Assembly: GCA_031409655.1 (NCBI GenBank) | Contig: JANNXQ010000301.1 | Span: forward strand, 1 to 59,242 | Reading direction: 5' to 3' | DNA from: Chthoniobacteraceae bacterium | GTDB taxonomy: Bacteria > Verrucomicrobiota > Verrucomicrobiia > Chthoniobacterales > Chthoniobacteraceae | DNA length: 59,242 nucleotides | Program-made: the position numbers and the translations under genes | Notes under the pieces: generated by a model | What the model saw: the letters and a program-made list of their open reading frames with translations, nothing else | Database searches by the model: none | What the model was told of the DNA's origin: nothing | Part shown: positions 21,591 to 58,017 of the stretch, piece by piece | Layout of the letters: every line of letters begins with the position of its first letter | Position numbering within the stretch: the stretch's first letter is position 1

Positions 21591-22540
21591 CGGGATAAGC
21601 CGCGCGGAGGTTGCATGAAAAAGTGCATGTCTCATGCGGTGCGAGCGCGGCGGTGCCCTAGTCATGCCTTTATCAATCTTCGCGTAGTCATCGGGCAGAA
21701 TATTCTTGATGGCGAGTTACAGTCGCTTGGTGTTCACCGAGCGCGAGAAGCGCCGGTCGCAGCCAAAGGTCGGCTCGACCGTTCGCAGATGCTGCGCTGC
21801 CGAGTCCGTTAATTTACCGCCGAAGCGGCTCTGGAGACGCGGAATTTCGTGAATGAGGCTTTTTTTGCGAGACGGGAGCATTTTGGCCCGAACCGCCAGA
21901 GCGGAGCGCGACCGATGCGCGGAGTGGATGCGGGTGCGGTGTACACCATGCGCGATCTGCGAGTCCGCGCGATTAGGTCGGGTAGAATTTGCGCGCCGGA
22001 GGGGACGGGCAGCAGCGTTACTTCGTGACCCTCCATCCGGTGGAGCCGCTGCCAGGCGAGTGGCGCACGCGCTTTGTTTCCCCGGGCGGCACCGGACATG
22101 CGGACTTCCCGCCTTTCGTCACCCGGATTGCAAAGCAGGCGCTGCCGGAGGGCTTTTTGGTGGTGCAACTGGTCGCCCCCGTGTGGTCGCCCGCGTAGGC
22201 GGAGAACCCTGATCATCAAGCTGCATGAATGGCGACGGCTTGTCGGTTCTACCGAAATCCGGCGAGACGGGGACCTTCGTGGCGATGTCGGCTTTCCATT
22301 CGCGGCGACTCCCGCAGTTGGCGTCCGCGACGCATCGAGCTTTGGCCAGAAGTTCAAACGCCGCTTTCGCCCGTCCGCGCAAGATCGGTAAAGGCAGGCC
22401 CGTCGATGACCTCCATCCCGCACGAAAGGTGGCTCGGCTTGGGGGCGAGTCTTTGACCTGCCTCAGCGGAAACCAATACGCAGCGATGCGGAAAATTTCT
22501 CGATGAATCGGCACGCGCGGGGTTAGCAATGCAACCCCGC

Positions 22541-23911
22541 ATGAAACTTACCCCTCACCTTTTCACCATTCTCGTCGCCGTCTCCGTGTCGCAAGCCGCC
22601 GACGCTCCACCTGCCGGCTTTACTTCGCTCTTCAATGGCAGGGATCTCACGGGATGGATGCCGGTGAATGTCGCACCGGATACTTTCAGTGTGCGTGAGG
22701 GTATGATCGTGACCAATGGGAAGCCAACGGGCTACATGCGGTCGGCGAAGATGTACGAAAACTTCGTCCTCGAAGTGGACTGGCAGCATCTGACGCCGAA
22801 GGGGAATAGCGGGGTCTTCATTTGGGGGGATGGCATCCCGGCGATGGGTACCGGTTACACCCGTGGCATTGAGGTGCAGGTGCTCGAAAACAGTTACGGC
22901 GAGAATAAAGGGAACAATGAGTGGTTCACGACGCACGGCGACATTTTTCCCATCTGGGGCGCGGAGATGACCCCGATGGGGCGTCTCGCGAAGCGTGGTA
23001 AGCGGAGCTTCCCTACGGAGGATCGGAGTAAGCCAGCGCCGGAATGGAATCACTACCGCATCACGTGCAATGCCGGCGAAATCCGGCTCGAGGTGAACGG
23101 CAAGGAGACCACGGTGGGGAAGGACTGCGTGCCGCGGAAGGGGTTCATCGCGCTCGAGAGTGAAGGTGCGGAGTGTCACTTTAAGAACATCTTCATCAAA
23201 GAACTGCCTTCGACGAACACGCCGCCTGAACAGACTGCGAATCCGTACGAGGGCTATACCTCGCTGTACAACGGCGTCGATTTCACTGGCTGGAAAGTTC
23301 CCGAGGGCGACAACGGTCACTGGAAAGCACAGGATGGCATCATCGACTACGACGCGCGCAGCGAAGCGCCCGGCGAGAAGCATCTGTGGAGCAAAAAGGA
23401 ATACGGCGACTACACCCTGGTGGTCGATTGGCGAATCAAGGAGACGCCGTTTACCAATCCCCGGGCCGCGCAAATCCTGCCCGATGGCTCGGATGCGAAA
23501 GGTCCTGATGGGAAGCCGATTCAACTCACCATTCCCGACTCAGACTCCGGCATCATCCTCGCCGGCGATCAGAAGTATCAGGTGAATATCTGGTGCTGGC
23601 CCATCGGCTCGGGGGAAATGTACGGCGTGCGTCGCGATGCCGCAATGCCGTCGGAAGTGCGCGCTGGCGTGACGCCGAAGGTCAAGGCTGACCATGCCGT
23701 AAAAAGCTGGAACCGCTACGAGATCACCGTTCGCAAAGGCACGGTGACGGTGGTACTGAACGGTCAGGAAGTCGTCTCTAGCGGCCCGATTCCCGGCATG
23801 CCCGCGCGCGGCCGAATTGGCCTGCAGCACCACGGCGCGATGAAGGACGGCGAGTGGACCAGTCCGCCGTCGCTGGTGCAGTTCCGCAACGTTTTCATCA
23901 AAGAGCTGTAA
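22541..23911 (+). CDS. Tandem DUF1080 (3-keto-disaccharide hydrolase-like) protein
   Basis: Two repeats: SLFNGRDLTGW...NSGV...WNHYRI...GFIALESE and SLYNGVDFTGW...DSGI...WNRYEI...GRIGLQHHG; signal peptide. Confidence 0.93.
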   Translation: MKLTPHLFTILVAVSVSQAADAPPAGFTSLFNGRDLTGWMPVNVAPDTFSVREGMIVTNGKPTGYMRSAKMYENFVLEVDWQHLTPKGNSGVFIWGDGIPAMGTGYTRGIEVQVLENSYGENKGNNEWFTTHGDIFPIWGAEMTPMGRLAKRGKRSFPTEDRSKPAPEWNHYRITCNAGEIRLEVNGKETTVGKDCVPRKGFIALESEGAECHFKNIFIKELPSTNTPPEQTANPYEGYTSLYNGVDFTGWKVPEGDNGHWKAQDGIIDYDARSEAPGEKHLWSKKEYGDYTLVVDWRIKETPFTNPRAAQILPDGSDAKGPDGKPIQLTIPDSDSGIILAGDQKYQVNIWCWPIGSGEMYGVRRDAAMPSEVRAGVTPKVKADHAVKSWNRYEITVRKGTVTVVLNGQEVVSSGPIPGMPARGRIGLQHHGAMKDGEWTSPPSLVQFRNVFIKEL

Positions 23912-24276: not shown

Positions 24277-25335
24277 ATGGATCGTCGCTGTCTGAAGATT
24301 CTCCGATATCTTCTATGTGGAATGCTGGTGTTGGTCGCCAAGTCGGCGTCGCTGGCTGGCCGTCCCTTGGACGAGTACGACTTTTCTTTGCGTTTTCCCG
24401 CCGCGATCAGCCGGTTTGCTCCCTACGGGGACGTTGCCGGCTTGGGTGGGGCGCAAGCAGCCAGCGAGTACTCGAGTTCCACCAACCCAGCTTCGGGCGC
24501 ATGGCCCCAGCCGGCGCGGAAATATTCAAATTCCTTCTCTCCCCAGTTTACGACGGTCCGTTTTGCCGAGAGCCAGGATCTCTACGTGACCGCGCAGGCC
24601 TTGGCCGTGGACGCAGGTGTGTGGGGCTCGTTTCTCCCGGCCGCAGCCCAACTCCGCAGTAACCGCGCTGAGGATAGTTCGGGAGTCGGCTTCCGCGTCG
24701 ACGCCGAGTCCTACCAACTGCAATGGGCCAAACGAGTTGGGGATCAGACTACGATTGGCGCAAACTTCAATGCGACCTACACCGACATTCGCTATTACGA
24801 TCGAGATCTCGGCGAGATTGCACGTTCGAGGAGCGATGCTTACGATATCAGGCTGGGCTTGGTTCGTCAGTTTCTCCCGCGGTTGCGGGTTGGCGCTGTC
24901 GTAGATTACGGCTGGTCGCCCGCGCGCACCGACAAGCTCGGGTTTGATTTCAAGACTTTCTCCCTCAAGAATTTCCGCACTCGTGATACGACGCACCAGT
25001 TCCTCTGGAGACTCGGGCTGACGTGGGAATATCAGGAAGGCTCGGATCTGTATCTCGACTACCAAGGTGCCAGCTTCTTTAACGACGAAGGCACTCTGCT
25101 GGTTCATCGCTTCTCCCTGGGAATCGAACAGCAACTCCTCAAGGATATCCTTTTCGGGCGCGTCGGAGTGACGATCGACGCCCGTGGCGAAGTGTCCGCG
25201 ACCGCAGGCATTGGAGTGACACTTGGCACTCGCGCCAGCCTCGATCTCGCATACCAGCACAATTCATTTCCAGAAATCCGCAAAGAGTTCGGCCAAGCGC
25301 AAAGTTTTGTGATTTCGCTGGGTGTCGGCTTTTAG
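24277..25335 (+). CDS. Outer-membrane beta-barrel protein, FadL/OmpP1-like
   Basis: Signal peptide; AGLGGAQAA...TNPA hatch-like motif; alternating beta strands; C-terminal Phe (ISLGVGF). Confidence 0.7.
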   Translation: MDRRCLKILRYLLCGMLVLVAKSASLAGRPLDEYDFSLRFPAAISRFAPYGDVAGLGGAQAASEYSSSTNPASGAWPQPARKYSNSFSPQFTTVRFAESQDLYVTAQALAVDAGVWGSFLPAAAQLRSNRAEDSSGVGFRVDAESYQLQWAKRVGDQTTIGANFNATYTDIRYYDRDLGEIARSRSDAYDIRLGLVRQFLPRLRVGAVVDYGWSPARTDKLGFDFKTFSLKNFRTRDTTHQFLWRLGLTWEYQEGSDLYLDYQGASFFNDEGTLLVHRFSLGIEQQLLKDILFGRVGVTIDARGEVSATAGIGVTLGTRASLDLAYQHNSFPEIRKEFGQAQSFVISLGVGF

Positions 25336-25357
25336 GGGGATCGAGAATGCCGCCGTT

Positions 25358-27016
25358 ATGAATTCGCTGCTCGATCAAACGATTACTATAAATTTCTTCT
25401 CAATAATTGATATCGTCGCATTACTAATTACGACCCCAGTCTTAATTGTATCCGTTATCCGATTCGCCCGCGTTACGCGGGATGAAGCAGACCTCGCTTT
25501 CACGCTGGTCACTCTCGCGGTTGTGTTAGCCGGCGTACTAATCCTCGCAGAGGACAACATTGTGCCAGCCGGAGTTCCGTCAGTCTCAATCCAAGACGGG
25601 GCTTCTTACTCTCTTTCTCTGGTGCGTGGCATCTACGTGCTCGGTGCTCAAATCCTTGCGGCAACCCTTCATTTTGCTTTGCGGTACACCAACAGCCAGC
25701 ATTTGAAAGGAGCGAAGGTGATGTGGCTCTACGCCGGCGCAATATCCTTGTGTCCGCTTATATGGTCTCCACTGTTCCTGAAGATGCCGTCACACCCGAA
25801 CAGCATTACAAGCAGTTGGAAAAGAGCGGTGCCATGGCATCCGGTTTCGGGCGAATTACTTTGGATCTACGCAGCCCTTTGGATCATGGGTGTGTGCTAC
25901 GTACAGTATTTGTTGTGGCGAGGGGCCTCTTCTGGGTCGCTTCGATCCGCTGCCACAGTCCGTTCGACAACGGTCATAATTGGTTTGGCGGTGATTTCAT
26001 TCTCGGCGGTCGTGATGATTATCGAGGCGCTGTCCGGATACCTTGGAGTAGCTCTGGCGCCGTTTGCAATGTCAGTGGGAATGGGAGTCGTCGGAGTGGG
26101 TTTGGTCTTTGAGTGGGAGTTATCCACGAGGGAGCATGAACACGTGACACAACGCTTTCAGAGTTATGTCGATCCGGCTCTCGTAAAGTATGTCCTTGAA
26201 CATCCTGAAAATGTTCGGTTCGAAGGAGAGGTGCGGGAACTCACGGTTGTGTTCACTGATTTGGAGGGTTACACGCCTTTGGCGGAAGCACTTCGTGAGC
26301 GAGCAGTTCCCCTCCTCAATGAATACTTTAGCTTGTTGACACCACTTATCCGCGAGCAAAATGGCTACCGGAGCAAGTTCCTTGGTGATGGGATTATGTT
26401 TTTTTATAAGGCACCCGAGTGGAATTGCGATCATGCCATTCAAGCGGTGGCGACCGTCCTGAAGATGCAGCAAACCCTGGCCCAATTTAACGCTAGTCTG
26501 TTCGATCGGGGGATGAAGCCATTGGTGACACGAATCGGAGTTAGCTCTGGAGAAATGGTTGTTGGTGATGCAGGATCTGCCGAAGGTAGCGACTATACGG
26601 TTTTAGGTGATGCGGTGAATCTTGGCGCGAGGCTTGAGTCGGCAAACAAAATAACTGGAACTCACATTCTGATGGGCGAAGGGACGATGAAGCTTTTGCC
26701 GAGGGATCTATTTCTGGTTCGACCTATCGGCAAGCTGCAAGTTGTAGGATTGAGTCGTGCCGTCATGACTTACGAACCTCTGTCCTACTGTACTCAAGCT
26801 AGCGACTTGCAGCGGAATCTTGCGAGACTGACGCAGCACATGGTCGATGCCTTCATTGGAGGTGATTTCGAGGCTTGCTTGAACGCGGAGCATCATCTCG
26901 TGGAAGCCTGTGGTCCGAGCAAATTGGCCGCTCTTTACCGTCGTTCCTGCGAAGAGTGGATCGCGCAACCCGCTGGCGCTGAGTTTTCCGGGGAAATTGT
27001 CCTCACTGCGAAGTAG
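25358..27016 (+). CDS. Multi-TM (about 7) class III adenylate cyclase
   Basis: About 7 hydrophobic segments, then FQSYVDP, VVFTDLEGYT, SKFLGDG, RIGVSSG, DYTVLGDAVNLGARLES. Confidence 0.92.
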   Translation: MNSLLDQTITINFFSIIDIVALLITTPVLIVSVIRFARVTRDEADLAFTLVTLAVVLAGVLILAEDNIVPAGVPSVSIQDGASYSLSLVRGIYVLGAQILAATLHFALRYTNSQHLKGAKVMWLYAGAISLCPLIWSPLFLKMPSHPNSITSSWKRAVPWHPVSGELLWIYAALWIMGVCYVQYLLWRGASSGSLRSAATVRSTTVIIGLAVISFSAVVMIIEALSGYLGVALAPFAMSVGMGVVGVGLVFEWELSTREHEHVTQRFQSYVDPALVKYVLEHPENVRFEGEVRELTVVFTDLEGYTPLAEALRERAVPLLNEYFSLLTPLIREQNGYRSKFLGDGIMFFYKAPEWNCDHAIQAVATVLKMQQTLAQFNASLFDRGMKPLVTRIGVSSGEMVVGDAGSAEGSDYTVLGDAVNLGARLESANKITGTHILMGEGTMKLLPRDLFLVRPIGKLQVVGLSRAVMTYEPLSYCTQASDLQRNLARLTQHMVDAFIGGDFEACLNAEHHLVEACGPSKLAALYRRSCEEWIAQPAGAEFSGEIVLTAK

Positions 27017-27285
27017 GAGCACTGTTGGAAATTTGGAACACGTTCAGGCGGGTTGAAGCGGGTGGATCGAGGAGCGATTGCACTTTTGGATCGTGGTTGT
27101 GCTTTTGGTTTCAGCGAATCAATGCAGGTGGGGTGCGCTCCCTCGCCTTTGTTTGAAGTGGCCCACGGAAAGGGATCTTTGAATTCGCCTTGTTTAAGGA
27201 TGCCTCGGAGAGGTTGAATGTTCTTCGGTAATGGGCTTTAACAATTGCTGAATCATCTATTCAAAAGTGAGCGGGAGTGTTTTTT

Positions 27286-28629
27286 ATGAAATCACCATTC
27301 GAAGAAATTGCGCTGGAAGCCTTCCAGAGAGCGGCCGCGTGTGTTCCATCCTATCGTGAACTTCTGCTAGAGGCTGGAGTCCGGCCTGGGGAAGTCCGGA
27401 CGATTGAAGACTTCCGGCGGCTACCGATCCTTGAAAAGGAGAATACCTTTCGCCGATTTCCGATCGAAAAGTTGTGTGTCGATGGCGAACTGGGCCGACC
27501 CGATTCCGTGCTGACGAGTTCGGGGCATTCCGGGGTTTTTGCTTTCGGCCTCACTGATGAGGGGAGCACTGCGGCGACGACGGAATGGATCGATGGACTG
27601 TTGGATATGATTTTTGGGGTTCGTTCGCGGAAGACTCTTCTCGTCAACTGCCTGCCGATGGGAGTGAAGGTGCAAACATCGGCATGCACGCTTGCGGAGA
27701 CCAGTGTGCGGGCAGACATGGTGGTCGGGTTGGTAAAGTCTTTCGGGCGGCACTACGCGCAGATTATCCTCGTCGGGGAGGCGGCGTTCGTGAAGCACCT
27801 GCTCGAATTAGGGGAGCATTCTGGGATCCATTGGGCAGACCATCGCGTCCACGTGATTCTTGGCGAAGAGCCCTTGGCCGAGAACGCGCGCAAATATCTC
27901 GAAGGGCTCCTTGGGATCACTCAAGGACGAGAAGATCGTGGGATCGTGTGTTCGTCGATGGGGGTGGGAGAAGTCGGGCTGAATCTTTTCAGCGAAGTGC
28001 CACCGGTCGCGCCCTTGATCGCGCTGCGTCGCGCTCTGCATGAGAGCGAAGCGTTGCGTCAGCTTGTTCTTGGTGGTCCAGACTGCGTACCGTCCATTTT
28101 CACTTACGACCCAAGGCGGATTTACGTGGAGTTTGATCCCGTCGGACGCTTGATCGTCACGACTCTCGATCCTCGTTTGCGCGTTCCTTTGATCCGATAT
28201 GCGACAGGTGATTGCGGGAGCGTGCTGTCCGTGTCGCCGGAGGCTCAGGTGGCGCTTGAGCAAATTGGCATTCCGGCGGCGCTCTTCGATGCCATTCCGA
28301 TCGTCCTGATCGATGGACGAGGAAAGTATGCGTCTTCCGGCGAAGCGCGAGTGTATCCAGAATCGGTGAAGGAGGGCATCTATCTGGTCCCAGAGTTGGC
28401 GAAGCTCACGACGGCAAATTTCCGGCTCGTTTCGGGTGAGGGGTCAGCGACGGTGCGAATTCAGCTTTCGCCTGGCATTCATCCGAGTGCGGAGGTCGAC
28501 GACCGCTTCAACGATGCGATCAGGCGTTACGTCCGCGCGCCGATTATAGTCCGAACCGAAGCCTACGAGACCTTTGGCAGCGGGATGACTTTGGATTTCG
28601 AGCGGAAATTTGACTATCTCGGGCGGTAG
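27286..28629 (+). CDS. Phenylacetate-CoA ligase (PaaK)-like adenylate-forming enzyme
   Basis: VPSYRELL...FRRLPILEK, LTSSGHSG P-loop-like motif, VPLIRYATGD, VYPESV. Confidence 0.85.
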   Translation: MKSPFEEIALEAFQRAAACVPSYRELLLEAGVRPGEVRTIEDFRRLPILEKENTFRRFPIEKLCVDGELGRPDSVLTSSGHSGVFAFGLTDEGSTAATTEWIDGLLDMIFGVRSRKTLLVNCLPMGVKVQTSACTLAETSVRADMVVGLVKSFGRHYAQIILVGEAAFVKHLLELGEHSGIHWADHRVHVILGEEPLAENARKYLEGLLGITQGREDRGIVCSSMGVGEVGLNLFSEVPPVAPLIALRRALHESEALRQLVLGGPDCVPSIFTYDPRRIYVEFDPVGRLIVTTLDPRLRVPLIRYATGDCGSVLSVSPEAQVALEQIGIPAALFDAIPIVLIDGRGKYASSGEARVYPESVKEGIYLVPELAKLTTANFRLVSGEGSATVRIQLSPGIHPSAEVDDRFNDAIRRYVRAPIIVRTEAYETFGSGMTLDFERKFDYLGR

Positions 28630-28641
28630 CAAAGGACGGAT

Positions 28642-29802
28642 TTAAGTCGCAGGCGAGAGATCGAGCATTGATCCGCTGTCGGCGGCACTTGCTGGCTCGT
28701 GACCTAGGGGAAGCGACGAGAACCATTCCTGAATGGTGTCGATGAAGGTGCGTCCGGTGACGGAATCGAAGACGTTTTTGCCCCAGCGGTCGCGGAGGAT
28801 TTCCCACTCGGAGGGCAAGCAGCGGTCGATGAAATTTGATTCCGTGACGAAGAGCTGCCGCAGGGTCTCGATCTGGCCGAATTGCTCCTCGGCCGCGTAG
28901 TCCCAGTCTGCGACGTGGTCGAGGTAAGGGTTGGAAATGGCCATGAACTGGCGCACGAATTCGGCGGCTTCGTCGCGGAGTGGGAGACCGCCGGTGTAGC
29001 GGGCGGATTCCAGGCTGAGCGCGACGACGGGGTCGAAGATGGTCTCGGAATAGCTGCGCTCGGAGCCGACTTCCCGGTAGCCGAGCAATTCGTAAAAGCT
29101 GCCGTGGCTCGGGCTGACCGTGGCGATGGATTCATCGTATTCGGCGTAGATGACGTGGGCGGCGGCGCAGCGCATGAGTTCCGTGGCCAAGCCTGATTTC
29201 CGATGCTCGGCGGCGATGACCTGATTGGTCCACTCGCAGAGGCGAGCGCCAGTGGCCCGCAGACGGTCCAATTCATCGCGGAACGCTGCATCTGATGGCA
29301 GTCCGAGCTCCGGAGAGTCGCCCGCGATGCTTAAGACGCCGACCACTTTGCCGCCCACTTTGGCGACGAAGGTGGCCATCTCCGCAGTGGCTTCAAACAT
29401 CCTCATGCGCAAGCCTGCGGGATCGGGATCGATGTAGCCGGATTCGAGGTAGACATCATGCACGAGCCGATAGGCGTCGCGCAGGTCTTCAAAGCATTGC
29501 GCCCGTTCGATCGTGGCCTCCATCGATTGCCCGAAAAGTCCCGAACGCTTGAGCATGGCGAGTCGGCGGCGGCTCCGGCGTTCATCGGCGGGTTGTTCGG
29601 CGTTCCAGCGGGACGTTTCGAGAGTCGAAGCCTGCAGCCGTTGGTAGTCAGCCGTGGCGTTGAGCGACCGCAGCGAAGGTGGTGCGGTGTTCCTCTTCGC
29701 CATTCGGCTGGAAGACCAACCAGTTTCGCTGGCGACATCATCGAGTCCGCGGTCCAGCGCGCGCTGGGCCTGCATTTCTATGAGATCAAGGGAGTCGTTC
29801 AT
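28642..29802 (-). CDS. FeeM-like N-acyl amino acid synthase (GNAT fold)
   Basis: AYRLVHDVYLESGYI, ATFVAKVGGKVVGVLSIAGDSPELGLPSD, LCE, TVSPSHGSFYELLGY, PVVAL. Confidence 0.82.
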   Translation of the reverse strand: MNDSLDLIEMQAQRALDRGLDDVASETGWSSSRMAKRNTAPPSLRSLNATADYQRLQASTLETSRWNAEQPADERRSRRRLAMLKRSGLFGQSMEATIERAQCFEDLRDAYRLVHDVYLESGYIDPDPAGLRMRMFEATAEMATFVAKVGGKVVGVLSIAGDSPELGLPSDAAFRDELDRLRATGARLCEWTNQVIAAEHRKSGLATELMRCAAAHVIYAEYDESIATVSPSHGSFYELLGYREVGSERSYSETIFDPVVALSLESARYTGGLPLRDEAAEFVRQFMAISNPYLDHVADWDYAAEEQFGQIETLRQLFVTESNFIDRCLPSEWEILRDRWGKNVFDSVTGRTFIDTIQEWFSSLPLGHEPASAADSGSMLDLSPAT

Positions 29803-33110: not shown

Positions 33111-33263
33111 CGCGCTCCCGAGAGTAGCTAAAGGAATGCCACGCCCGGACCTGGGAACGCTGTGCCCAGTCCTCTCCGCTGGGTCCAGGGCGCGCCGGGA
33201 AGTCGTTCCACCTTGGCAACGCACTTCTCCCACGCTAAGCACGCGGCGAAATCGCGACCGCGC

Positions 33264-35630
33264 ATGGCCGAGCCCGACGACTCCCAGGTTATCCCCACTA
33301 AAGCCAATCTGTCGCCCGAAGAGGCGGAGGGCATTCAGTCCGTGCAGGGAATCACCGATTCGGCCGTTGTGCGGATGTTCGGCGCCGCAAGGGGCCGGGG
33401 CGGTCCGGGAGCATGGGCGCCCCCCACGCCGGAGGAGCTGCAGTGCGAGCTCCCGCAGTTCGAGATATTCGATCTTCTGGGTCGCGGTGGCATGGGCGCC
33501 GTTTACAAGGGGCGGCAGCGCAGCCTCGACCGCTACGTCGCGATCAAGATCCTCCCCGGCGCATTTGCCAGCGGCGACCCCGAATACGCCGTGCGCTTCC
33601 AGCGCGAAGCCCGCGCCATGGCCCGACTCAGCCACCCCTGCATCGTCGCCGTCCACGATGCCAGCGAGACCTCCGGCGGGCTGCTCTACTTCGTCATGGA
33701 CTACATCCAGGGCACCGACGTGCAGCAGCTCGTCGCCGCGCAGGGCAGGCTGCCCGTCGAGCGCGCCCTCGCCATCGCCAGCAGCGTCTGCGACGCGCTC
33801 GACTACGCGCATCGCCACGGCGTCATCCACCGCGACATCAAGCCGTCGAACGTCATGGTCGACACCGCCGGCCAGGTGAAGGTCGCCGACTTCGGCCTCG
33901 CTAAACTCGCCACCAACGACTCCGCGCTCCTCACCGCCAGTGACGCCATGATGGGTACGCCCGACTTCATGGCCCCCGAGTCCCACCTCGGCACCGCGCA
34001 GGTCGATCACCGCGCCGACCTCTACGCCATCGGCGTCATGCTCTACCAGATGCTCACGGGGAAGCTGCCGCGCGGCCGCTTCGAGCCGCCCTCCCGTCTC
34101 GTCCCCGGCCTCGATCGCCGGCTCGACGCCATCATCGATCGCACCCTGCAAAACGAACGCGACGCCCGCTACTCCAGCGCCCTCGAGCTGCGCACCGCCC
34201 TCGCTCCCGTCCTCACGCGCAGCCTCGCGCTCACCAGCGCCTCTCCACGTTCGTGGAAAAAGCCTGCGCTGTTCGGTGCGCTCGCCGTCCTGCTGGCGGG
34301 GGCGGCGTTCATTGTTTTTCGTCCATCCACACCCGAGGTGAAGCCCGTCCCACCCGCGGCCGAAACGCCGAAGCTCGCAGGAGCGTCCGCCCCGGCCGCC
34401 GGCACCACTCCACAGTGGCAGCGTTTCGAGTTCGCCAAGATGCCCGTGCTCGAAGCCACGCAGAGCCGCAAGAACGTGTCCATGCAGGGCGATCTGCTCC
34501 ACGTGCACGACTCCGACGGCTGGACTTACGAACGCGAACGCCGCCTCGCGGTCACGAACGCTGCCCTCCGCGCGGTCATCGACTGGAGCACCCCAGCCAG
34601 AAATCCCAAGCTCCTCTTCCGCGAGACCCGCGATCAGCCCGGTCGCCACTGCTACGCCAAACTGGCGCGCGAATCTGTGGAAGTAGGCATCCACCGGGGC
34701 GGCGACCAGACGTTGAAACGCCTCCCCCACGGGCTCGCCACACAGACTCCACGCGAAGTCATCTTCCAAGCCGCCCTCATCGGCACGCGGATGACCGTGT
34801 GGCTCAATGGCCAGCGGCTCGGCGAAGTCGATGGCCTTCCCGCCGACCCCACGGGCACCGCTGGTCTGCAAGCCTCAGATGCGCTCTTCCGCAGCCTCGA
34901 AATCCTCAACCTCGACGGCCTGCCCGAGGCCGAGGCGCTGAAACTTGCGGGAATCACCGGCGATGCGGGGAAGTCGCTGACAACACCAAAGCCCACGGAC
35001 ACCAAAGTCAGCGCCACCTTCCCGCCCGGCGAGTGGGTGCAGCCATATCCCGATCCTTTGAAGATTCCGAACCTCGCGGACTTCACGGACGGCTGGGCAC
35101 GGCTGACCACCCAGGGTGCATACCTCTACCCACGCCCCAGTGGCTGGCCGTCGTACTACATCCGCAACGGCGGCATCCGCGCCCGGTTCGGCGAAAGCAC
35201 AGCCGAGAACGAGTTTAAATATCTCCAAATCCGAAATTCCCAGCGCCCTGGCGAAAAGTCGCGCGTTTTCGAATTACACATCAAGACCACCGAGCCCGCC
35301 ATGATCTCACTGCGCGAACATCGTGGAGAATGGGTACCTGCCAACCCCTCCGAGGCGCAAAAGTGGGCCGCCCACCGCCTGCTCGCACAAAAAGCCATTT
35401 CCCCACTCACCGGTGAGTTCACGGCCGAATTCATTGCCGTCGGGCCGACGCTTTTCGCACGAGTTTACGAGCATACGCTCACTTGGACCCTTGCCGACGA
35501 TGATGGCCGCTTGGGCAGCTGCGGCTTGGCTGGAACCACCGGAAAGCGCTTCCGCGACGTGGAAATCCTCAACCTCGACGGCCTGCCCGAGGCCGAGGCG
35601 CTGAAGCTGCTGGGCCTCGAAAAGCCATGA
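33264..35630 (+). CDS. Membrane Ser/Thr protein kinase with two tandem extracytoplasmic domains
   Basis: GRGGMGAVY, VAIK, HRDIKPSN, DFGLAK, GTPDFMAPE; TM segment PALFGALAVLLAGAAFIVF. Confidence 0.95.
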   Translation: MAEPDDSQVIPTKANLSPEEAEGIQSVQGITDSAVVRMFGAARGRGGPGAWAPPTPEELQCELPQFEIFDLLGRGGMGAVYKGRQRSLDRYVAIKILPGAFASGDPEYAVRFQREARAMARLSHPCIVAVHDASETSGGLLYFVMDYIQGTDVQQLVAAQGRLPVERALAIASSVCDALDYAHRHGVIHRDIKPSNVMVDTAGQVKVADFGLAKLATNDSALLTASDAMMGTPDFMAPESHLGTAQVDHRADLYAIGVMLYQMLTGKLPRGRFEPPSRLVPGLDRRLDAIIDRTLQNERDARYSSALELRTALAPVLTRSLALTSASPRSWKKPALFGALAVLLAGAAFIVFRPSTPEVKPVPPAAETPKLAGASAPAAGTTPQWQRFEFAKMPVLEATQSRKNVSMQGDLLHVHDSDGWTYERERRLAVTNAALRAVIDWSTPARNPKLLFRETRDQPGRHCYAKLARESVEVGIHRGGDQTLKRLPHGLATQTPREVIFQAALIGTRMTVWLNGQRLGEVDGLPADPTGTAGLQASDALFRSLEILNLDGLPEAEALKLAGITGDAGKSLTTPKPTDTKVSATFPPGEWVQPYPDPLKIPNLADFTDGWARLTTQGAYLYPRPSGWPSYYIRNGGIRARFGESTAENEFKYLQIRNSQRPGEKSRVFELHIKTTEPAMISLREHRGEWVPANPSEAQKWAAHRLLAQKAISPLTGEFTAEFIAVGPTLFARVYEHTLTWTLADDDGRLGSCGLAGTTGKRFRDVEILNLDGLPEAEALKLLGLEKP
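34899..35605 (+). repeat. 44-nt exact direct repeat (34899-34942 and 35562-35605)
   Basis: GAAATCCTCAACCTCGACGGCCTGCCCGAGGCCGAGGCGCTGAA, encoding EILNLDGLPEAEALK, occurs twice. Confidence 0.9.
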
Positions 35631-36361
35631 CCCCTCCGGCCGACGGCCAATTTCCAAACACGAGTTGGACCCTCATTGCCCGCCTGAAGTCCGATGACGA
35701 AGCGGTGGCCTCCGCGGCGATCGAGACGCTCTACACGCAGTATCACTTCCCGCTGTACTGCTATCTCCGGCGCCGCGGCTGCGCCTTCCAGGATGCAGAG
35801 GATGTCCTGCACGATTTCCTCGCCGGTCTCCTGCGCAGGCGCTCCTTTGATCGACTGGACGAATCGCGCGGCCGTCTCCGGGGCTGGTTCTGCACCGCGC
35901 TCGGCCGTCATCTGCAGGAGTGGCAGGGCCGCGAACGCCGGCGCGAAGCTGAGCCCCTCCCCCATGGCGTGGACGTGGACTTTGCCCGTGTGGAAGCCCG
36001 CTACCAGCGCGAGCACGCGGCGGATCACGATGCGCCCGATCGGGTCTTCGAGCGGGAATGGGTGCGCGAAATCTTCCGCAGCGTTCTCGCGTCTCTCACC
36101 CGGAAATACGAGGCGCGCGGACGCGGTGCACTGTTCGCGGTGCTCCGGCCGGTGCTGGAGACGGGCGGCAGCCTCCGCGATCACGACAGCGCCACGCTGG
36201 CCGAGACTGCCGGAATGAGCCAGGACGCGCTGCGCGCCGCGCTCGCCCGATTGCTCCGCGAATTCCGCGAGGGCATGCACGCCGAAGTCCGCCTGACCGT
36301 CGAGCACGCCGGGGAAGTGGACGACGAATTGGCTTACCTGATGAGCCTCTTCCGGTCGTGA
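35627..36361 (+). CDS. ECF sigma factor, kinase-associated PVC type
   Basis: FPNTSWTL, YHFPLYCYLRR, DAEDVLHDF, PDRVFEREW, EVDDELAYL; ATGA overlap with the kinase. Confidence 0.9.
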   Translation: MTPPADGQFPNTSWTLIARLKSDDEAVASAAIETLYTQYHFPLYCYLRRRGCAFQDAEDVLHDFLAGLLRRRSFDRLDESRGRLRGWFCTALGRHLQEWQGRERRREAEPLPHGVDVDFARVEARYQREHAADHDAPDRVFEREWVREIFRSVLASLTRKYEARGRGALFAVLRPVLETGGSLRDHDSATLAETAGMSQDALRAALARLLREFREGMHAEVRLTVEHAGEVDDELAYLMSLFRS

Positions 36362-51972: not shown

Positions 51973-52062
51973 AAACGCAAAACTTCAAACGCCAAACTTT
52001 AAACTTCAAAGGTCAGAGAGCGGACGGTCTCGCGATCCGCGCCGTTTGGAGTTTGGCGTTGA
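51973..52062. repeat. Inverted heptamer tandem repeats
   Basis: AAACGCA AAACTTC AAACGCC AAACTTT AAACTTC ... GTTTGGA GTTTGGC GTTGA. Confidence 0.75.
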
Positions 52063-52171
52063 TTCCTCGCGACTGGTTTCAATGCACCGGCTTTCGGCCC
52101 GCGCATTGATCCGTGCGCGGAACGGGTTTTTCGATTGCGCCTACCGGAAGGGGATCGGTATCACGGGAGGC

Positions 52172-55100
52172 ATGGGAAGCGTGCGTCGTGTTTGTATCTG
52201 GCTGAGCCTCGCGGTGGGGCTCGGAGTTCTGTCGTTTGCGGGTCGTGCTCTCGCGGAGTCCGCGGCCGTCCTCGTGGAGAAAGAGAAGGTGGTGGAGGCG
52301 CGCTTGCAGGGTGCGGGTTGGGATGCGGCGGCGCTTGGGCGGGAATTTGCGACGCGCGATGGCTTGCGCACGGGGGAGTTCAGTCGCGCGGCGCTGCGCT
52401 TCACGGATCGCAGCATGTTGCGCTTGGATGAGCTGACGACGATCGAGATCAGCGCGTCGCCGGCGGCGGCGGAGAAGACGCTCGAGATGAAACGCGGCGG
52501 TGCGTATTTCTACAGTCGGGAGCGGCCGGAGCAGATCAAGATCCGCACGGCGGTGGTGAATGGAGCGCTGCGCGGGACGGAGTTTGCGCTGCGCGTGGCG
52601 GCGGATGGGAAGACGACAGTGGCGATGTTTGAAGGCGAGGTTGAACTGAGCAATCCGCAGGGCCGACTGCTGGTCCGCAGCGGTGAGATGGCGGAGGTGG
52701 CGGCGGGCGGCGCGCCGCGGAAGACGGCGCTGATCGAGGCGAGGAATATCATCCAGTGGTGTCTCTACTACCCGGCGGTGCTCGATCCGGCGGAGCTGGG
52801 CTTTGGTGCGGAGTCGGAGACGGTGGCGGCGTATCGCGCCGGGAATCTTCCGGGAGCGCTCGCGGCATTGCCGTCGGCGGGTGGTGCGAAGGCGGCGCGA
52901 CTTTACCGCGCGGCAGTGATTCTTTCGTCCGGACAGGTGAAAAAGGCACAGATGATTTTGCAAGGCGTGCCGGCGAGCGATGCCGGGCGACGGGCGCTGG
53001 AGCGGATGATCGCGGCGGTGCAGATGCGCGAGTCTTCCGGGAGCGGCGAACCCAGCACCGCGAGTGAGTGGCTGGCGGAATCTTACGCGCAGCAATCGCG
53101 GCACGACCTCGAAGCCGCGCGCGCCGCGGCGCGACGGGCGACGGAGCTTTCACCGGGCTTCGGCTTTGCCTGGGCGCGATTGGCGGAGCTGGAGTTTTCT
53201 TTCGGCCGCACGAAGTCGGCGATGCAGTTGGTCGAGCGGGCGCTGGAACTCGCGCCGCAAAATGCGCAGGCCCACGCGTTGCAAGGTTTCCTGCTGAGCG
53301 CGGAGAATCGTCTCGGGGCGGCGCGGCGCTGCTTTGAGCAGGCGATCGCGCTCGATGGTGCGCTCGGGAATGCGTGGCTCGGGCGCGGACTCATTTCCAT
53401 CCGGCGCGGCGACGAGGAAGCGGGACGGCATGACTTGCAGACGGCGGCGGTGCTCGAGCCGACGCGCTCCGTCCTGCGCAGCTATCTCGGCAAGGCTTTC
53501 AGCCAGGTGGGGATCGACGACAAAGCGAATCTGGAACTCGAGCGCGCGAAGGAACTCGACCCCGCGGACCCGACGCCGTGGCTCTACTCCGCGATCCAGC
53601 GCAAGCAGGAGAATCGTTACAACGAAGCCATCGAGGCGCTCGAAAAATCCGTGGAGCTGAATGATAACCGGCGCGTCTATCGCTCGCTGTTTCTGCTCGA
53701 TCAGGATCGCGCCGTCCGCGGCACGAACCTCGCGTCGATCTATCTGAACAACGGCCTGACCGAGCAGAGCGTGCGCGAAGCGGTGCGCGCGGTGGGCAGC
53801 GATTACGCCAGCGCGGGTGCGCACCTTTTCCTCGCGAATAGCTACAACGCCCTGCGCGATCCGAACCGCGTGCTGCTCCGCTACGAGACGGCATGGTTCA
53901 ATGAATTGCTGCTCTCGAATCTGCTCTCGCCGGTGGGCGCCGGGCCGCTCTCGCAGTTCGTCTCCGAGCAGGAGTACTCGAAGCTTTTTGAAAAGGACGG
54001 ACTCGGTCTGAGTTCGGTCACCGAGTATCGGAGCGACGGGCAGGTGCGGGCGATCGCGTCCCAGTTTGGCACGACCGGAAACCTCAGCTACGCGCTGGAT
54101 GCGGAATACTTTTTCGACAACGGAAACCGACCAAACAACGAGGTCTCGCGCTTCGAAAGTTACGGCACTTTCAAGCTCCAACTCAGCCCGCAGGACACGG
54201 TCTTTTTGCAGGTGAAGTATCAGGACTTTTCCAGCGGCGATGTTTTCCAGCGGTACGATCCGCGGGACGTGGAGCGCACCGTGACCGGCACGGGCGTGAC
54301 GAAGAAGGTCGAGAAAAATTTCGAGGGACTCACCTTTGACTTCCGCGAAAAACAGGAGCCCGGGCTGCTCCTTGGCGGCTGGCATCACGAGTGGGCGCCC
54401 GGCCAGCACACCCTGCTCCTGCTCGGTCGCTTCGCGGCGGACGATGCGCTGCGCTACGACGATGCGCGGGTGCCCTTCGTCCTGCGCGATGCGAGTCTGC
54501 TCGCGGCTCCGGAGACCGACACGGGCGTCTCGGATGGAACGATCCCGCGGGACCGGCAGTTTTTCTCCGCGATGCGCCGGCTGCTCGGACGCGCGCAGCT
54601 CTTCGAGGGAGACACCAAGAGCTTCGATCTCGAAAGCAGTCAGCGTTTTGAAATCCTGAGCGCGGAGTTGCAGCACATCGCGACCTTCGGCGCGCACACC
54701 GTGATCGTGGGCGGACGTTTTCAGAGCGGGCGCTTTGAGGCGGAGTCGCGGCTTTCGGATTTTGAAAATGGGCTCGATGGGTTCGGGGCCGTGGCGTTTG
54801 AGAAGCCCGAACTCCGGCAGCGCACGTCGGTGGATCTGGAGCGGGTGAGCCTGTACCTCTACGAACTCTGGCGTCCGTGGTCGTGGCTCGGCGTCACCGC
54901 GGGGGTGACTTACGACAGCCTCGATTTCCCCGCGAATCCGACGAGCCCGCCGATCAGTGGCCGCCAATCTTCCGTGGACGAGGTTTCGCCAAAGTTCGGA
55001 CTCATCCTCCAGCCGTGGCGCGGGGCGACTTTGCGCGCGGCCTATTCGGAATCGCTCGGCGGCGCGAGCTTTGAGGAAAGTGTGCGGCTCGAGCCGACGC

Positions 55101-55921
55101 AGGTGGCGGGCTTTCTCCAGGGGACGCGCTCGGTGCTCTCCGAGTCGCTGCTCGGATCGGTGACGGGGAGCAAGTATCGCTTCACGGGGCTGAGCTTTGA
55201 GCAAAAGCTGCCGTCGCGCACTTACCTCGGCTTTGAGTATCGGCTGCTGCGGCAGGATCTCGAGCGCACGCTTGGGGCGATCGCGAGTCTCGACTTTGCC
55301 GGCACGCCGCTCGCGAATCTGCCGTCGTCGATCGAGGAGAAGGATGCATATCGCGAGGACACTTTCACCTTCACCGCGAACCAACTCCTCGGGGAGCGCT
55401 GGGCGTTCGGCGCGCGCTACGATTACACGCGGGCTTCCTTGCGGCAGCAGCTCGCGGGATTCAGCGATGCCTATGCGGCGGGATTGCTGGACCCGGGGAC
55501 GGTGGAGTCTCGGCGCGCGGAACTGGCGCGCCTGGCCGATGGCGCGGACGAGCGCACTGTGACTGGCCTGCATCACCTGCAACTCGACGTGTTGTACAAT
55601 CACCCCTCGGGTTTCTTCGCGCGAGCCGATGCGCAGTGGTATCGGCAGGATGAAAACAGTTTCGTCACGCGACCGGACTTCAGCGCCGTGGATGCGGGCA
55701 CGGGCGCGACGCGGCGGCGCGTGGATCGGGAGGGTCGGCCGAGTGACGACTTCTGGCAGTTCAATGTGACGGCGGGCTATCGCTTCCTGCGGAATCAGTG
55801 CGAGGTGAGCTGCGGGGTGCTGAATCTGAGTGGGCAGGATTACCAGCTCGATCCCCTCACCCCTTACGCCGAACTGCCACGCGATCGGACGTTCTTCGTC
55901 CGCTGCCGGCTGAATTTCTAG
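52172..55921 (+). CDS. FecR, TPR and beta-barrel outer-membrane receptor (NsrA-like)
   Basis: GGAGG RBS; signal peptide; LRTGEFSRA...ALRGTEF FecR; TPRs (DPADPTPWLY, NDNRRVYRS); barrel ending in CRLNF. Confidence 0.88.
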   Translation: MGSVRRVCIWLSLAVGLGVLSFAGRALAESAAVLVEKEKVVEARLQGAGWDAAALGREFATRDGLRTGEFSRAALRFTDRSMLRLDELTTIEISASPAAAEKTLEMKRGGAYFYSRERPEQIKIRTAVVNGALRGTEFALRVAADGKTTVAMFEGEVELSNPQGRLLVRSGEMAEVAAGGAPRKTALIEARNIIQWCLYYPAVLDPAELGFGAESETVAAYRAGNLPGALAALPSAGGAKAARLYRAAVILSSGQVKKAQMILQGVPASDAGRRALERMIAAVQMRESSGSGEPSTASEWLAESYAQQSRHDLEAARAAARRATELSPGFGFAWARLAELEFSFGRTKSAMQLVERALELAPQNAQAHALQGFLLSAENRLGAARRCFEQAIALDGALGNAWLGRGLISIRRGDEEAGRHDLQTAAVLEPTRSVLRSYLGKAFSQVGIDDKANLELERAKELDPADPTPWLYSAIQRKQENRYNEAIEALEKSVELNDNRRVYRSLFLLDQDRAVRGTNLASIYLNNGLTEQSVREAVRAVGSDYASAGAHLFLANSYNALRDPNRVLLRYETAWFNELLLSNLLSPVGAGPLSQFVSEQEYSKLFEKDGLGLSSVTEYRSDGQVRAIASQFGTTGNLSYALDAEYFFDNGNRPNNEVSRFESYGTFKLQLSPQDTVFLQVKYQDFSSGDVFQRYDPRDVERTVTGTGVTKKVEKNFEGLTFDFREKQEPGLLLGGWHHEWAPGQHTLLLLGRFAADDALRYDDARVPFVLRDASLLAAPETDTGVSDGTIPRDRQFFSAMRRLLGRAQLFEGDTKSFDLESSQRFEILSAELQHIATFGAHTVIVGGRFQSGRFEAESRLSDFENGLDGFGAVAFEKPELRQRTSVDLERVSLYLYELWRPWSWLGVTAGVTYDSLDFPANPTSPPISGRQSSVDEVSPKFGLILQPWRGATLRAAYSESLGGASFEESVRLEPTQVAGFLQGTRSVLSESLLGSVTGSKYRFTGLSFEQKLPSRTYLGFEYRLLRQDLERTLGAIASLDFAGTPLANLPSSIEEKDAYREDTFTFTANQLLGERWAFGARYDYTRASLRQQLAGFSDAYAAGLLDPGTVESRRAELARLADGADERTVTGLHHLQLDVLYNHPSGFFARADAQWYRQDENSFVTRPDFSAVDAGTGATRRRVDREGRPSDDFWQFNVTAGYRFLRNQCEVSCGVLNLSGQDYQLDPLTPYAELPRDRTFFVRCRLNF

Positions 55922-55926
55922 CCGCC

Positions 55927-58017
55927 GTGCCAGAACGCCCCCAAGCCCCTCCTGCGAATCGCCGGCGCCGTCGGCGGCTCGCACTTGCGGCGCTGAGCCT
56001 CGCCGGCGCGGTGCTGGTCGCGGCGCTCGGCTATGGGCTGGTGCGGGGCTCGATCGTGGAGCGGAGCGACGTGAAAGCGCGGCCGCTGTTCGGTTGGGTG
56101 CAGTCGTCGCTCGGGGAAGGGCTGGCGCGCTTGAGCTACGATCTGCCGTTCATCGTCCGAGCGCGGCGGGCGGCGCGTGAGCTGCCGCCGGCTTGCGTCA
56201 TTTATCTGGATGAAGGTTCGGCGGCGAAACTCGATCAACGCGGCGGGGTTTGGGATCGGCAGTTGCACGCCGATCTCGTCCGTCGGCTGAAGCGCGAAGG
56301 CGCGCGGGCGATTTTTTTCGACATCGTCTTTTCCGATGCGTGGCCTGATCCGGCGGTGGATGAGGATTTCGCGGAAGCCATCGCGGAACATGGGAATGTC
56401 TTCCTCGGTGCGGCGCTGGAACTCGACCACGGAGCAAAGGCGTTGCAGGAGCGCACGGTGCCGCCGACGCCGGTGCTGCGGAAAAGCGCGGCGGGCTGGG
56501 GACTGATTGCCTTTCGACCGCTCGATCCGGATTTCGGGGTGCGGCGGATTTTCACCGGCACGGAACAAGTGCCGTCAGCAACGTGGCGGGCGGCCCTGGC
56601 ACTCGGCGCGAAGCTGCCGACGACTGACGAAGGACGTTTGGAAGCGCGCTGGCTGAATTTTTACGGCCCGCCGAATACCTTCCCCAATGTCAGCTACGAC
56701 CGGGCGTTGCGGGACAATGAAGTGCCGCCTGATTTCTTTCGGGACAAGTTGGTCTTCGTCGGCGGTCGCTCCACGCTGGGTTCGCTGATGCTCGGCAAGG
56801 ATGACTTTCGCACGCCTTACGGATTGTTCGGCGAGCAGTTCGCGCACGGGGTGGAACTGCATCTCACAATTCTGCAAAATCTGCTGCGGGGCGAATGGCT
56901 CACGCGCCTCGCGCCGAGCTGGGAGCTGTGGTTCGTGGTGACGTTTGGCGCGCTGCTCGGCGGTGGGTTGCCGTGGTTGCGCCCGCATTGGGCAGCGGTC
57001 GTGGCACTGCTCGCGGTGGCGGTGCTGGCGGCGGTGGCACTGTGGTTGCACGCGCATCGGCAGGTCTGGTTCGCGTGGTGTATCTCGGCGCTCGTGCAGG
57101 TGCCGCTGGCGCTGGTCTGGGCGGTGGGCGTGCGGTACTTCGTGGAGGAAAAGAGGCGACGGGCGTTGCGCGATGCCTTTGGGCTCTATCTGTCGCCGCA
57201 GATGGCGGATCGCATCGCGGAGGCGGACTTCGACTTAAAGCCCGGCGGCGCGGTCGTGGATTGCACCGTGATCTTCACCGATCTCGAAGACTACACAGGC
57301 CTCTGCCCGCGCATGGATGATCCGCTGCACATCTCGCGGGTCCTCACCACTTACTTCACGCACACGACCGGTCACATTCTCGAAAGCGACGGGACGATCA
57401 TCAAATACATGGGCGATGCGGTGCAGGCCGTCTGGGGTGCGCCGCTGAACGATGCCGACCATGTGCGCAAAGCAGTCCGCGCGGCTTGGCGGATGCACGT
57501 CGCCTCGCGGATCGAATGCGAAGGCCATCCGTTGCGGACGCGCATCGGCGTGAATACGGGGCCGATGATCGCCGGGAACCTCGGCTCGGCGCAGCGCTTC
57601 GACTACACCGTGACGGGTGACGCCGTGAACTTTGCCTCGCGCCTCGAAGGCTTGAACAAGTTCCTCGGCACGGACGTTCTGCTTTCGGACACCATCGTCC
57701 GCGCGCTCGATACGGAGTTCCTCACGCGACCGCTGGGTGAATTCCTGGTCGCGGGACGGAAGGAGCCCCGGCTCGTCCACGAACTCCTCGGCCCCGCCGA
57801 CGGCGAGGCGCGCCCGTGGCTCGAGACCTTTGCCCGCGCGCTGGCGGCATTTCAGGCCGGCGATCTCGATGCCGCGGAACGCGGAATGCGCGAGACCGTG
57901 GCGCAGCGCGACGGCGCGGATGGGCCTTCGACGATGTATTTGAAGAAGATCGCGGAGTATCGCCTTTCCGGCCGGCCTGCGGATTGGCGAGGGGTCATCG
58001 AGTTTGGGAAAAAGTAA
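55927..58017 (+). CDS. CHASE2 adenylate cyclase
   Basis: WDRQLHADLV...FDIVF CHASE2 and GVELH; 3 TM segments; VIFTDLEDYT, IKYMGD, DYTVTGDAVNFASRLEG. Confidence 0.92.
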   Translation: MPERPQAPPANRRRRRRLALAALSLAGAVLVAALGYGLVRGSIVERSDVKARPLFGWVQSSLGEGLARLSYDLPFIVRARRAARELPPACVIYLDEGSAAKLDQRGGVWDRQLHADLVRRLKREGARAIFFDIVFSDAWPDPAVDEDFAEAIAEHGNVFLGAALELDHGAKALQERTVPPTPVLRKSAAGWGLIAFRPLDPDFGVRRIFTGTEQVPSATWRAALALGAKLPTTDEGRLEARWLNFYGPPNTFPNVSYDRALRDNEVPPDFFRDKLVFVGGRSTLGSLMLGKDDFRTPYGLFGEQFAHGVELHLTILQNLLRGEWLTRLAPSWELWFVVTFGALLGGGLPWLRPHWAAVVALLAVAVLAAVALWLHAHRQVWFAWCISALVQVPLALVWAVGVRYFVEEKRRRALRDAFGLYLSPQMADRIAEADFDLKPGGAVVDCTVIFTDLEDYTGLCPRMDDPLHISRVLTTYFTHTTGHILESDGTIIKYMGDAVQAVWGAPLNDADHVRKAVRAAWRMHVASRIECEGHPLRTRIGVNTGPMIAGNLGSAQRFDYTVTGDAVNFASRLEGLNKFLGTDVLLSDTIVRALDTEFLTRPLGEFLVAGRKEPRLVHELLGPADGEARPWLETFARALAAFQAGDLDAAERGMRETVAQRDGADGPSTMYLKKIAEYRLSGRPADWRGVIEFGKK

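Follow-up and report, generated by a model that had tools for sequence, protein, structure and literature searches.

A ligase–synthase pair and a predicted FadL-fold barrel with a seven-helix receptor-cyclase meet at one verrucomicrobial locus

Introduction

Does a membrane-anchored cyclase read an amide made by the enzymes encoded next to it? The question is raised by four genes that lie within 5.5 kb of a Chthoniobacteraceae genome (assembly GCA_031409655.1, contig JANNXQ010000301.1; the whole stretch of 59,242 nucleotides that was analysed is referred to as the window). They encode an outer-membrane β-barrel, a class III adenylate cyclase preceded by seven transmembrane helices (7TM), a PaaK-like ligase and a FeeM-type N-acyl amino acid synthase homologue. 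The original prediction, made from the sequence alone, took them for a self-contained circuit, in which ligase and synthase make an amide that crosses the barrel and is read by the cyclase. Three wider questions meet in this unit, i.e., the role that N-acyl amino acids play in PEP-CTERM/exosortase loci, which is called unclear or speculative (PMC4897644, PMC7293339), the ligands of HisKA_7TM-type sensors, none of which was found in the one literature search made (PMC5847659), and the standing of cyclase membrane anchors as native receptors, a role demonstrated earlier with a chimera (PMC4821796).

Our analysis shows that two modules, each found repeatedly in the company of the other, are combined at this locus, namely the ligase with the synthase and a predicted FadL-type channel with a 7TM receptor-cyclase. 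That the receptor reads the acyl amide made by the two enzymes is quite possible, although we stop short of calling it probable.

The barrel bridges enzymes and receptors

Barrel loci were collected, 60 of them from metagenomes and the others from genomes; eight fragments of less than 200 amino acids (aa) were dropped, and 69 loci fell into 52 groups at 85% identity. These comprise a main clade of 42 groups, among them the window and a small number of loci that had initially come to light via their ligase, and a side clade of 10. Within the main clade, a signalling gene lies no more than 600 bp from the barrel in 25 of the 42 groups, compared with 6.4% of intervals drawn at random from the window's genome; this control may be an undercount, since the signalling hidden Markov models (HMMs) were built partly from barrel neighbours, the neighbours themselves being confirmed with Pfam. 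The 7TM domain is present in 11/42 groups, where it often follows the barrel by 1–22 nt; 14/42 have the ligase within 10 kb, and nine groups have both a ligase and a signalling gene. For 18 main-clade groups the flanking DNA reaches at least 2 kb on each side; a receptor is present in 13 of these, a ligase in 11 and both in seven, and a single group has neither. As predicted, the barrel is linked in the main clade both to receptors and to the ligase. The side clade has no ligase and often has an AAA-type cyclase nearby.

That the four families co-occur is borne out by the genome search: all four are clustered, with the cyclase as output, in three genomes of three genera, i.e., the window's own, G007 and G012 (in G007 the distance from the ligase to the two FeeM genes slightly exceeds 10 kb), and in a further locus, L157, in which the 7TM domain sits on a histidine kinase. 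The ligases of G007 and G012 are just 35% and 28% identical to that of the window. Two censuses were made, both leaving out the genomes at their centre. Among 150 other genomes of the window's family, the ligase, a close barrel and a strong 7TM match are each found in four, with overlaps of three (ligase–barrel), two (ligase–7TM) and three (barrel–7TM). A Phycisphaerae-centred class sample of 215 genomes gave seven with the ligase, seven with the barrel and three with the 7TM domain, ligase and barrel being shared by four genomes and barrel and 7TM by two. The ligase–7TM link is the weakest of the three pairwise links, and it is the barrel that bridges the two.

A widespread ligase–synthase pair in PEP-CTERM loci

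The PaaK label given to the ligase holds as a distant likeness and not as family membership: matches to TIGR02155 and NF041878 reach 36–38 bits against cut-offs of 646–700, while the ligase profile matches PaaK structures in the Protein Data Bank (PDB) with an E value of 6e-7. The nearest relatives of the ligase come from Verrucomicrobiota. Invariant in 29 homologues are TSSGHSG, SSMG..E, RY.TGD, GR and K441, which we take to be the P-loop, the A5 glutamate, the A7 aspartate, the A8 arginine and the C-terminal lysine of ANL enzymes. Judged by these conserved adenylation motifs, the ligase is an ANL adenylate-forming enzyme.

For the synthase, the FeeM label is upheld by PF21926 (126.8 bits, cut-off 27); the protein aligns to FeeM (PDB code 2g0b, E value 6e-7) and keeps the glutamate of the LCEWT motif, which is presumably the catalytic residue in FeeM. 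It has no TIGR03694 match, and a Pfam scan revealed no domain that binds cyclic nucleotide monophosphates (cNMP). The RxxGxA loop of GNAT enzymes is present in the window's synthase; when the clade was examined for a conserved CoA-binding loop, the strict pattern was found in only 3 of 29 relatives. Ligase and synthase likely make a hydrophobic fatty-acyl amide.

A scan of species genomes gave 80 ligase loci from many phyla; genes were counted with HMMs built from the same loci, with representatives verified in NCBIfam and Pfam. In 68/80 loci a synthase is found no more than 10 kb from the ligase, and in 60/80 no more than 1.5 kb; where the flanking DNA extends for 3 kb or more on each side, 50 of 54 loci have one. 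The synthase slot is filled by two families, FeeM-like (22) and TIGR03694 (47). A PepA/THxN-like PEP-CTERM gene is found within 10 kb in 56/80 loci and within 1.5 kb in 45, and in the window's ligase clade in 13 of 15 rows; the barrel is present in the two exceptions, the window and L012. There is no PEP-CTERM gene at the window locus, two genes of the same PEP-CTERM family lie on other contigs of the genome, and six exosortases are encoded there (PF09721, over the cut-off). Export genes (LolCDE-like ABC, MMPL and DUF1302) recur at ligase loci, and ThiF is an extra in 5/80 with none at the window locus. Ligases that the barrel adjoins fall on at least four separate branches of their tree (ligase and barrel trees are quick trees, and the L011 ligase forms a long branch). 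The pair formed by ligase and synthase is widespread and associated with PEP-CTERM, and this connection to PEP-CTERM and exosortases was missed by the original prediction; the association of such synthases with PEP-CTERM was already published (Craig, Cherry and Brady 2011).

Several further neighbours of the ligase were noted. A gene for ThiF fused to a β-eliminating (tryptophanase-like) lyase, together with an Amidohydro_2 gene, adjoins the ligase in G007 and G001 (L009:12226-14409 and L010:4994-7171), which suggests a tailored, possibly tryptophan-related product. A TIGR03694 acyltransferase fused to a long-chain acyl-CoA ligase lies near the PaaK-like ligase in three loci (L049:3474-6239, L038 and L040). 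Genes for cNMP-binding patatins are situated upstream of barrels (L185:569-2482 and L187:1122-3101, with a membrane cyclase next in L187) and in several ligase loci (L052, L071, L089 and L090); a link between cAMP and a lipase is possible.

The barrel has a predicted FadL-type fold

FadL-type channels pass hydrophobic solutes across the outer membrane. The AlphaFold model of the barrel (predicted local distance difference test, pLDDT, 92) has 14 strands behind an N-terminal helical hatch, and its best 21 structural matches all belong to the FadL family (FadL, TodX, TbuX and CymD; Z 26.8–29.9), with CymD at the top (Z 29.9, root-mean-square deviation, rmsd, 3.5, 291 aligned residues); PorV (Z 26.8) and BAM-associated barrels follow at Z 25.5–26.8. 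The hatch carries a motif like the NPA motif of FadL channels, which is named in the titles of PDB mutant entries: among 43 homologues, N55 and P56 are invariant and A57 is kept in at least 90%. The protein ends in a C-terminal Phe. The Pfam FadL and Toluene_X models, in contrast, gave no match at E values up to 0.1, and only weak generic barrel models were hit, so that we file the barrel as FadL-fold and not as a member of the Pfam family; the FadL label is supported by the predicted fold. A search of PDB sequences with the barrel profile was discarded, as it returned spurious T-cell receptor matches and CymD at an E value of 0.15, and the closest ESM Atlas clusters are labelled hypothetical, OMP and TraF_2. 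A side-clade paralogue of the barrel is encoded on another contig of the window's genome (L008:5951-7144, contig C248), with no ligase as neighbour; side-clade barrels of this kind often lie near zinc-ribbon, cyclase, AAA and TPR proteins.

A swappable seven-helix receptor domain on a class III cyclase

The cyclase domain matches PF00211 (Guanylate_cyc) with 70.4 bits (cut-off 21.9). In agreement with the original prediction it keeps D301 and D344, K340 and T414, and the N421/R425 pair (numbered from the ATG at 25358), of which we take the aspartates to bind metal and K340 and T414 to specify ATP. The lysine of the KGK motif is replaced (LQVVG), as it is in both close orthologues; cyclase orthologues, 47–50% identical, lie directly behind the barrel in G007 and G012. 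Going by its catalytic domain and these residues, the protein is a class III adenylate cyclase, which would make cAMP.

The membrane anchor is a true receptor domain, as had been proposed. A profile search yielded 131 representatives, and the 60 relatives scanned carry a SpoIIE phosphatase (17), a histidine kinase (17), a cyclase (8), a Ser/Thr kinase (7), a TIR domain (3), a cyclase plus kinase (1) or no recognised output (7). In view of these varied outputs we regard the 7TM domain as a swappable receptor domain related to HisKA_7TM, and five kinds of output on one domain are the signature of a ligand sensor. Seven transmembrane helices precede the signalling output, as in HisKA_7TM proteins; the window protein has no match to PF16927 (HisKA_7TM), its close orthologues reach 17–20 bits, below the cut-off of 28.6, and several relatives reach 29–39 bits. 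The nearest ESM Atlas entry is HisKA_7TM at 0.87, which is a lead only. In the model of the domain (pLDDT 89) seven long helices are seen, and the top 50 matches among 48,161 chains are G-protein-coupled receptor (GPCR) folds (best Z 16.6, rmsd 4.0, 226 aligned residues), a likeness to be read with the proviso that helical bundles easily score high and that a GPCR-like fold shows no function. Invariant columns are N12, D66, N67, R90 and the loop motif W-x5-P-W-x-P, all of which would face the periplasm in an N-out topology.

PrsK was considered as the proteobacterial counterpart of the 7TM domain and rejected, the membrane domains not being homologous (hhalign probability 0.5%). Three 7TM sensors are fused to a TIR domain (P0225, P0243 and P0257), possibly as ligand-gated NADases or defence receptors. 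Four proteins of about 800 aa carry the 7TM domain at the C-terminus (L206:2006-4483, L207:7193-9595, L208:7412-9808 and L209:8409-10859); the one scanned, that of L207, consists of a cyclase-like domain, a Ser/Thr kinase and the 7TM domain.

A proposed signalling route and its alternatives

The route that we propose is built on genes, families, predicted folds and recurring linkage, all of them observed, from which we infer its steps. The ligase would activate an acid for the synthase, or else adenylate the synthase's product as ThiF does in oxazolone pathways, where OxzA uses acyl-CoA and OxzB adenylates the product (bioRxiv 2020.06.11.147165). The acyl amide would leave the cell, the barrel would return it to the periplasm, the conserved outer face of the 7TM domain would bind it there, and the cyclase would convert the signal into cAMP. 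Through one or more cNMP-binding proteins (the genome has 13 matches), cAMP would probably act on PEP-CTERM/exopolysaccharide genes for floc or biofilm and slime. Because its gene is tied both to receptors and to a pair that makes acyl amides, the barrel is most simply taken as the entry port for a signal of the amide class. Receptors without the enzymes would be listeners, and the scheme would exist in modular versions, relatives placing a phosphatase, a histidine kinase or a Ser/Thr kinase on the 7TM domain or another receptor beside the barrel. Precedents come from Sinorhizobium, in which FadL helps the uptake of long-chain acyl-homoserine lactones (AHLs; PMC5977203), from a CqsS–cyclase chimera, in which a quorum receptor drives a class III cyclase (PMC4821796), and from stieleriacine, which shortens the lag phase of its producer (PMC7293339). 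More tentatively still, and with doubt prevailing, the locus may represent a new autoinducer class of Verrucomicrobiota and Planctomycetota, in which an amide from the PaaK-like ligase and FeeM is imported through a FadL-fold barrel and a GPCR-fold 7TM receptor with swappable outputs controls PEP-CTERM- or slime-dependent aggregation. If true, this would provide an endogenous lipid-amide ligand for a bacterial GPCR-fold receptor, an explanation for the presence of N-acyl amino acid synthases in PEP-CTERM loci, and a cell-to-cell signal loop of undescribed build. The cyclase output permits a simple readout in cya-minus E. coli.

A number of observations weigh against this route. Only 4 of the 80 ligase loci have the barrel and only one has the 7TM domain, and just one of the three 7TM genomes in the 215-genome sample also has the ligase (p 0.09); the p values of the censuses, moreover, overstate the association, since related genomes are not independent of one another, and short contigs account for many of the barrel loci. 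The 7TM domain occurs with no match to ligase or FeeM in G509 (79% complete) and G511 (71%), and with no ligase match in G953 and in G994, which has two barrel–7TM pairs; some such genomes are incomplete. G012 has two further 7TM proteins in unrelated contexts. Barrels adjoin unrelated receptors as well (6TM HD-GYP, GGDEF and one-TM hybrid kinases), one barrel gene is directly followed by that of a highly reducing polyketide synthase of 2600 aa (L221:2-9198), and the kinase of many proteobacterial ligase loci is PrsK, which is not homologous to the 7TM domain. Upstream of the window's transcription units, CRP-like and sigma-54 boxes were matched only with 2–3 mismatches, i.e., no convincing CRP-like site is present. 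These units are likely three, since cyclase and ligase are separated by a terminator-like hairpin and FeeM is encoded on the opposite strand. With the 7TM domain in 1/80 ligase loci, and found also where there is no ligase, the circuit is modular and not self-contained; here the original prediction fails, whereas its claims of co-occurrence, FadL fold, receptor anchor and barrel links stand.

Three other explanations have to be weighed. The enzymes may make an envelope lipoamino acid, as anchor or slime, for the PEP-CTERM/exosortase system, with the barrel exporting it or, like PorV, shuttling a surface protein and the 7TM cyclase sensing some other cue and sharing no more than the island. This explanation, which we consider rather unlikely, draws on the frequency of PEP-CTERM genes and the recurrent export genes at ligase loci, on the exosortases and same-family PEP-CTERM genes elsewhere in the genome, on the alignment of PorV with the barrel, on the G943 barrel directly behind a PepA/THxN-like PEP-CTERM gene and on an ExoAT mutant that is without its polysaccharide band (PMC11072679). 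It leaves unexplained, however, why a signalling gene is the nearest barrel neighbour in 25/42 groups; FadL/TodX channels also match about 3 Z units better than PorV, and the window has lost the PEP-CTERM gene while retaining barrel, receptor and enzymes.

Alternatively, the direction may be reversed, the barrel and 7TM cyclase sensing a hydrophobic cue from outside (a host or competitor lipid or aromatic) and cAMP turning on either the genes for ligase, synthase and PEP-CTERM proteins or the enzyme as such. The analogy would be NasP, which is activated by cAMP. NasP acts through a cNMP-binding domain, however, and direct activation of this type was rejected, as the Pfam scan revealed no such domain in the window's FeeM; the three units have no good CRP-like box upstream, and non-cAMP outputs replace the cyclase in most 7TM relatives. 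We consider the reversal improbable. A chance assembly of two functionally unconnected pairs in a variable island would fit the low GC of three genes, the differing content and orientation of the cassette among same-genus genomes and the genes beside the G007 cluster that we take to be insertion-sequence-like. Yet rare families, with the barrel in 0/400 class genomes and the 7TM domain in 0/400 phylum genomes searched, meet repeatedly in two phyla and several ligase clades; for the barrel–ligase and barrel–receptor links chance is largely refuted already, and as an account of the whole locus it is very improbable.

Comparison with known systems

In the Vibrio CqsA/CqsS and LuxM/LuxN systems, an autoinducer is read by a membrane receptor. 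The window would share with them an acyl-derived signal, a polytopic membrane sensor and a locus with no LuxR-type receptor, and differs in having a GPCR-fold 7TM domain on a native cyclase, a dedicated outer-membrane channel and synthesis by a ligase with FeeM. The AHL receptor of Sinorhizobium is a cytoplasmic LuxR-type protein. Its FadL-assisted AHL sensing (PMC5977203) resembles the proposed route in using a FadL-type channel for signal uptake and not for nutrition, whereas the window's channel gene is associated with membrane receptors and has diverged too far to match the FadL model of Pfam. HisKA_7TM proteins likewise have a seven-helix N-terminal sensor on varied outputs; the window's 7TM domain is a distinct subfamily tied to one barrel family.

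On the enzyme side, the PEP-CTERM/exosortase-linked synthases (TIGR03694 ExoAT and the stieleriacine cluster, PMC7293339) also feature a FeeM-type synthase, with relatives beside PEP-CTERM, ThiF and exopolysaccharide genes. Compared with ExoAT, the window's synthase has no TIGR03694 match and a constant PaaK-like partner for which there is no curated model; in the stieleriacine cluster such a partner is not annotated. OxzAB and TyzACB (bioRxiv 2020.06.11.147165, PMC12479983) also combine an N-acyltransferase with an ATP-dependent adenylating enzyme, which is ThiF there and ANL/PaaK-like in the window. The literature covered, which includes a minority of the subscription papers, yielded no receptor or channel for the products of PEP-CTERM-linked synthases and nothing on the role of the ligase family, the barrel–7TM pair or the four-gene combination. 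Each part has a precedent, i.e., synthases in PEP-CTERM loci, signal uptake by FadL, membrane receptors for autoinducers and a ligand-regulated chimeric cyclase, and the locus would be a variant of autoinducer-type signalling that relies on a membrane receptor. Should the self-signal link turn out to be wrong, the barrel and the 7TM domain still form a recurring sensing module that was not found described.

Locus layout, assembly and base composition

The four open reading frames (ORFs) lie at the positions claimed (Table 1), and the spacings read from the sequence are exact, with 22 nt from the barrel stop to the cyclase ATG and a 12-nt gap between the convergent ligase and FeeM genes.

Table 1 Features of the locus (window coordinates)
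Feature	Position	Strand	Evidence or remark
Outer-membrane β-barrel, 352 aa	24277-25335	+	Predicted FadL/TodX/CymD-type fold
7TM receptor-class III adenylate cyclase, 552 aa	ATG 25358-27016	+	22 nt behind barrel
7TM sensor domain, HisKA_7TM-related	25394-26137	+	Predicted GPCR-like fold
Class III cyclase catalytic domain	26234-26773	+	PF00211, E 2e-19; alignment
Terminator-like hairpin, cyclase/ligase intergenic	27126-27148	+	Consensus match only
PaaK-like short adenylate-forming (ANL) enzyme, 447 aa	ATG 27286-28629	+	Weak PaaK/FlxY/F390 matches below cut-off; family without curated model
FeeM-type GNAT N-acyl amino acid synthase homologue, 387 aa	29805/29802-28642	-	PF21926, E 8.5e-37

All four genes had been described as visibly lower in guanine plus cytosine (GC), which holds for three: compared with 2668 genome ORFs of more than 300 aa (genome mean 0.634), GC is 0.517 in the cyclase (0.3rd percentile), 0.574 in the ligase (2.5th) and 0.578 in the barrel (3.1st), and an ordinary 0.617 (22nd) in FeeM. 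The region is covered by contigs from freshwater-sediment runs of one study, possibly the source of the window; two of these runs each provide one public contig that extends over 25015-28939, from the end of the barrel into FeeM, with no differences. A misjoin is unlikely given this span, which is not independent support, as the runs may be the source DNA. The hairpin between cyclase and ligase is one of two such consensus matches, compared with 7.5 expected in shuffles, and sigma-70-like sites upstream of the three units are at chance level.

In three of the four genus genomes the cassette site is marked by a 3-keto-disaccharide hydrolase gene (22529-23911), and content and orientation vary. 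A FeeM gene follows the hydrolase gene in G001 and G003 and not in G002, the cassette of the window has the opposite orientation relative to that arrangement, and at this site G001 has a different ligase with the ThiF-lyase and amidohydrolase genes; the site is a mosaic among same-genus genomes. Elsewhere in the window, a Ser/Thr kinase gene is followed by one that we take to be ECF-sigma-like (33162-36361), similar kinase–ECF pairs lying near the ligase in L021, L022 and L025. Another membrane class III cyclase, with 30% identity over the C-terminal half, comes after a 1291-aa protein (52046-58017), presumably a TPR/β-barrel receptor.

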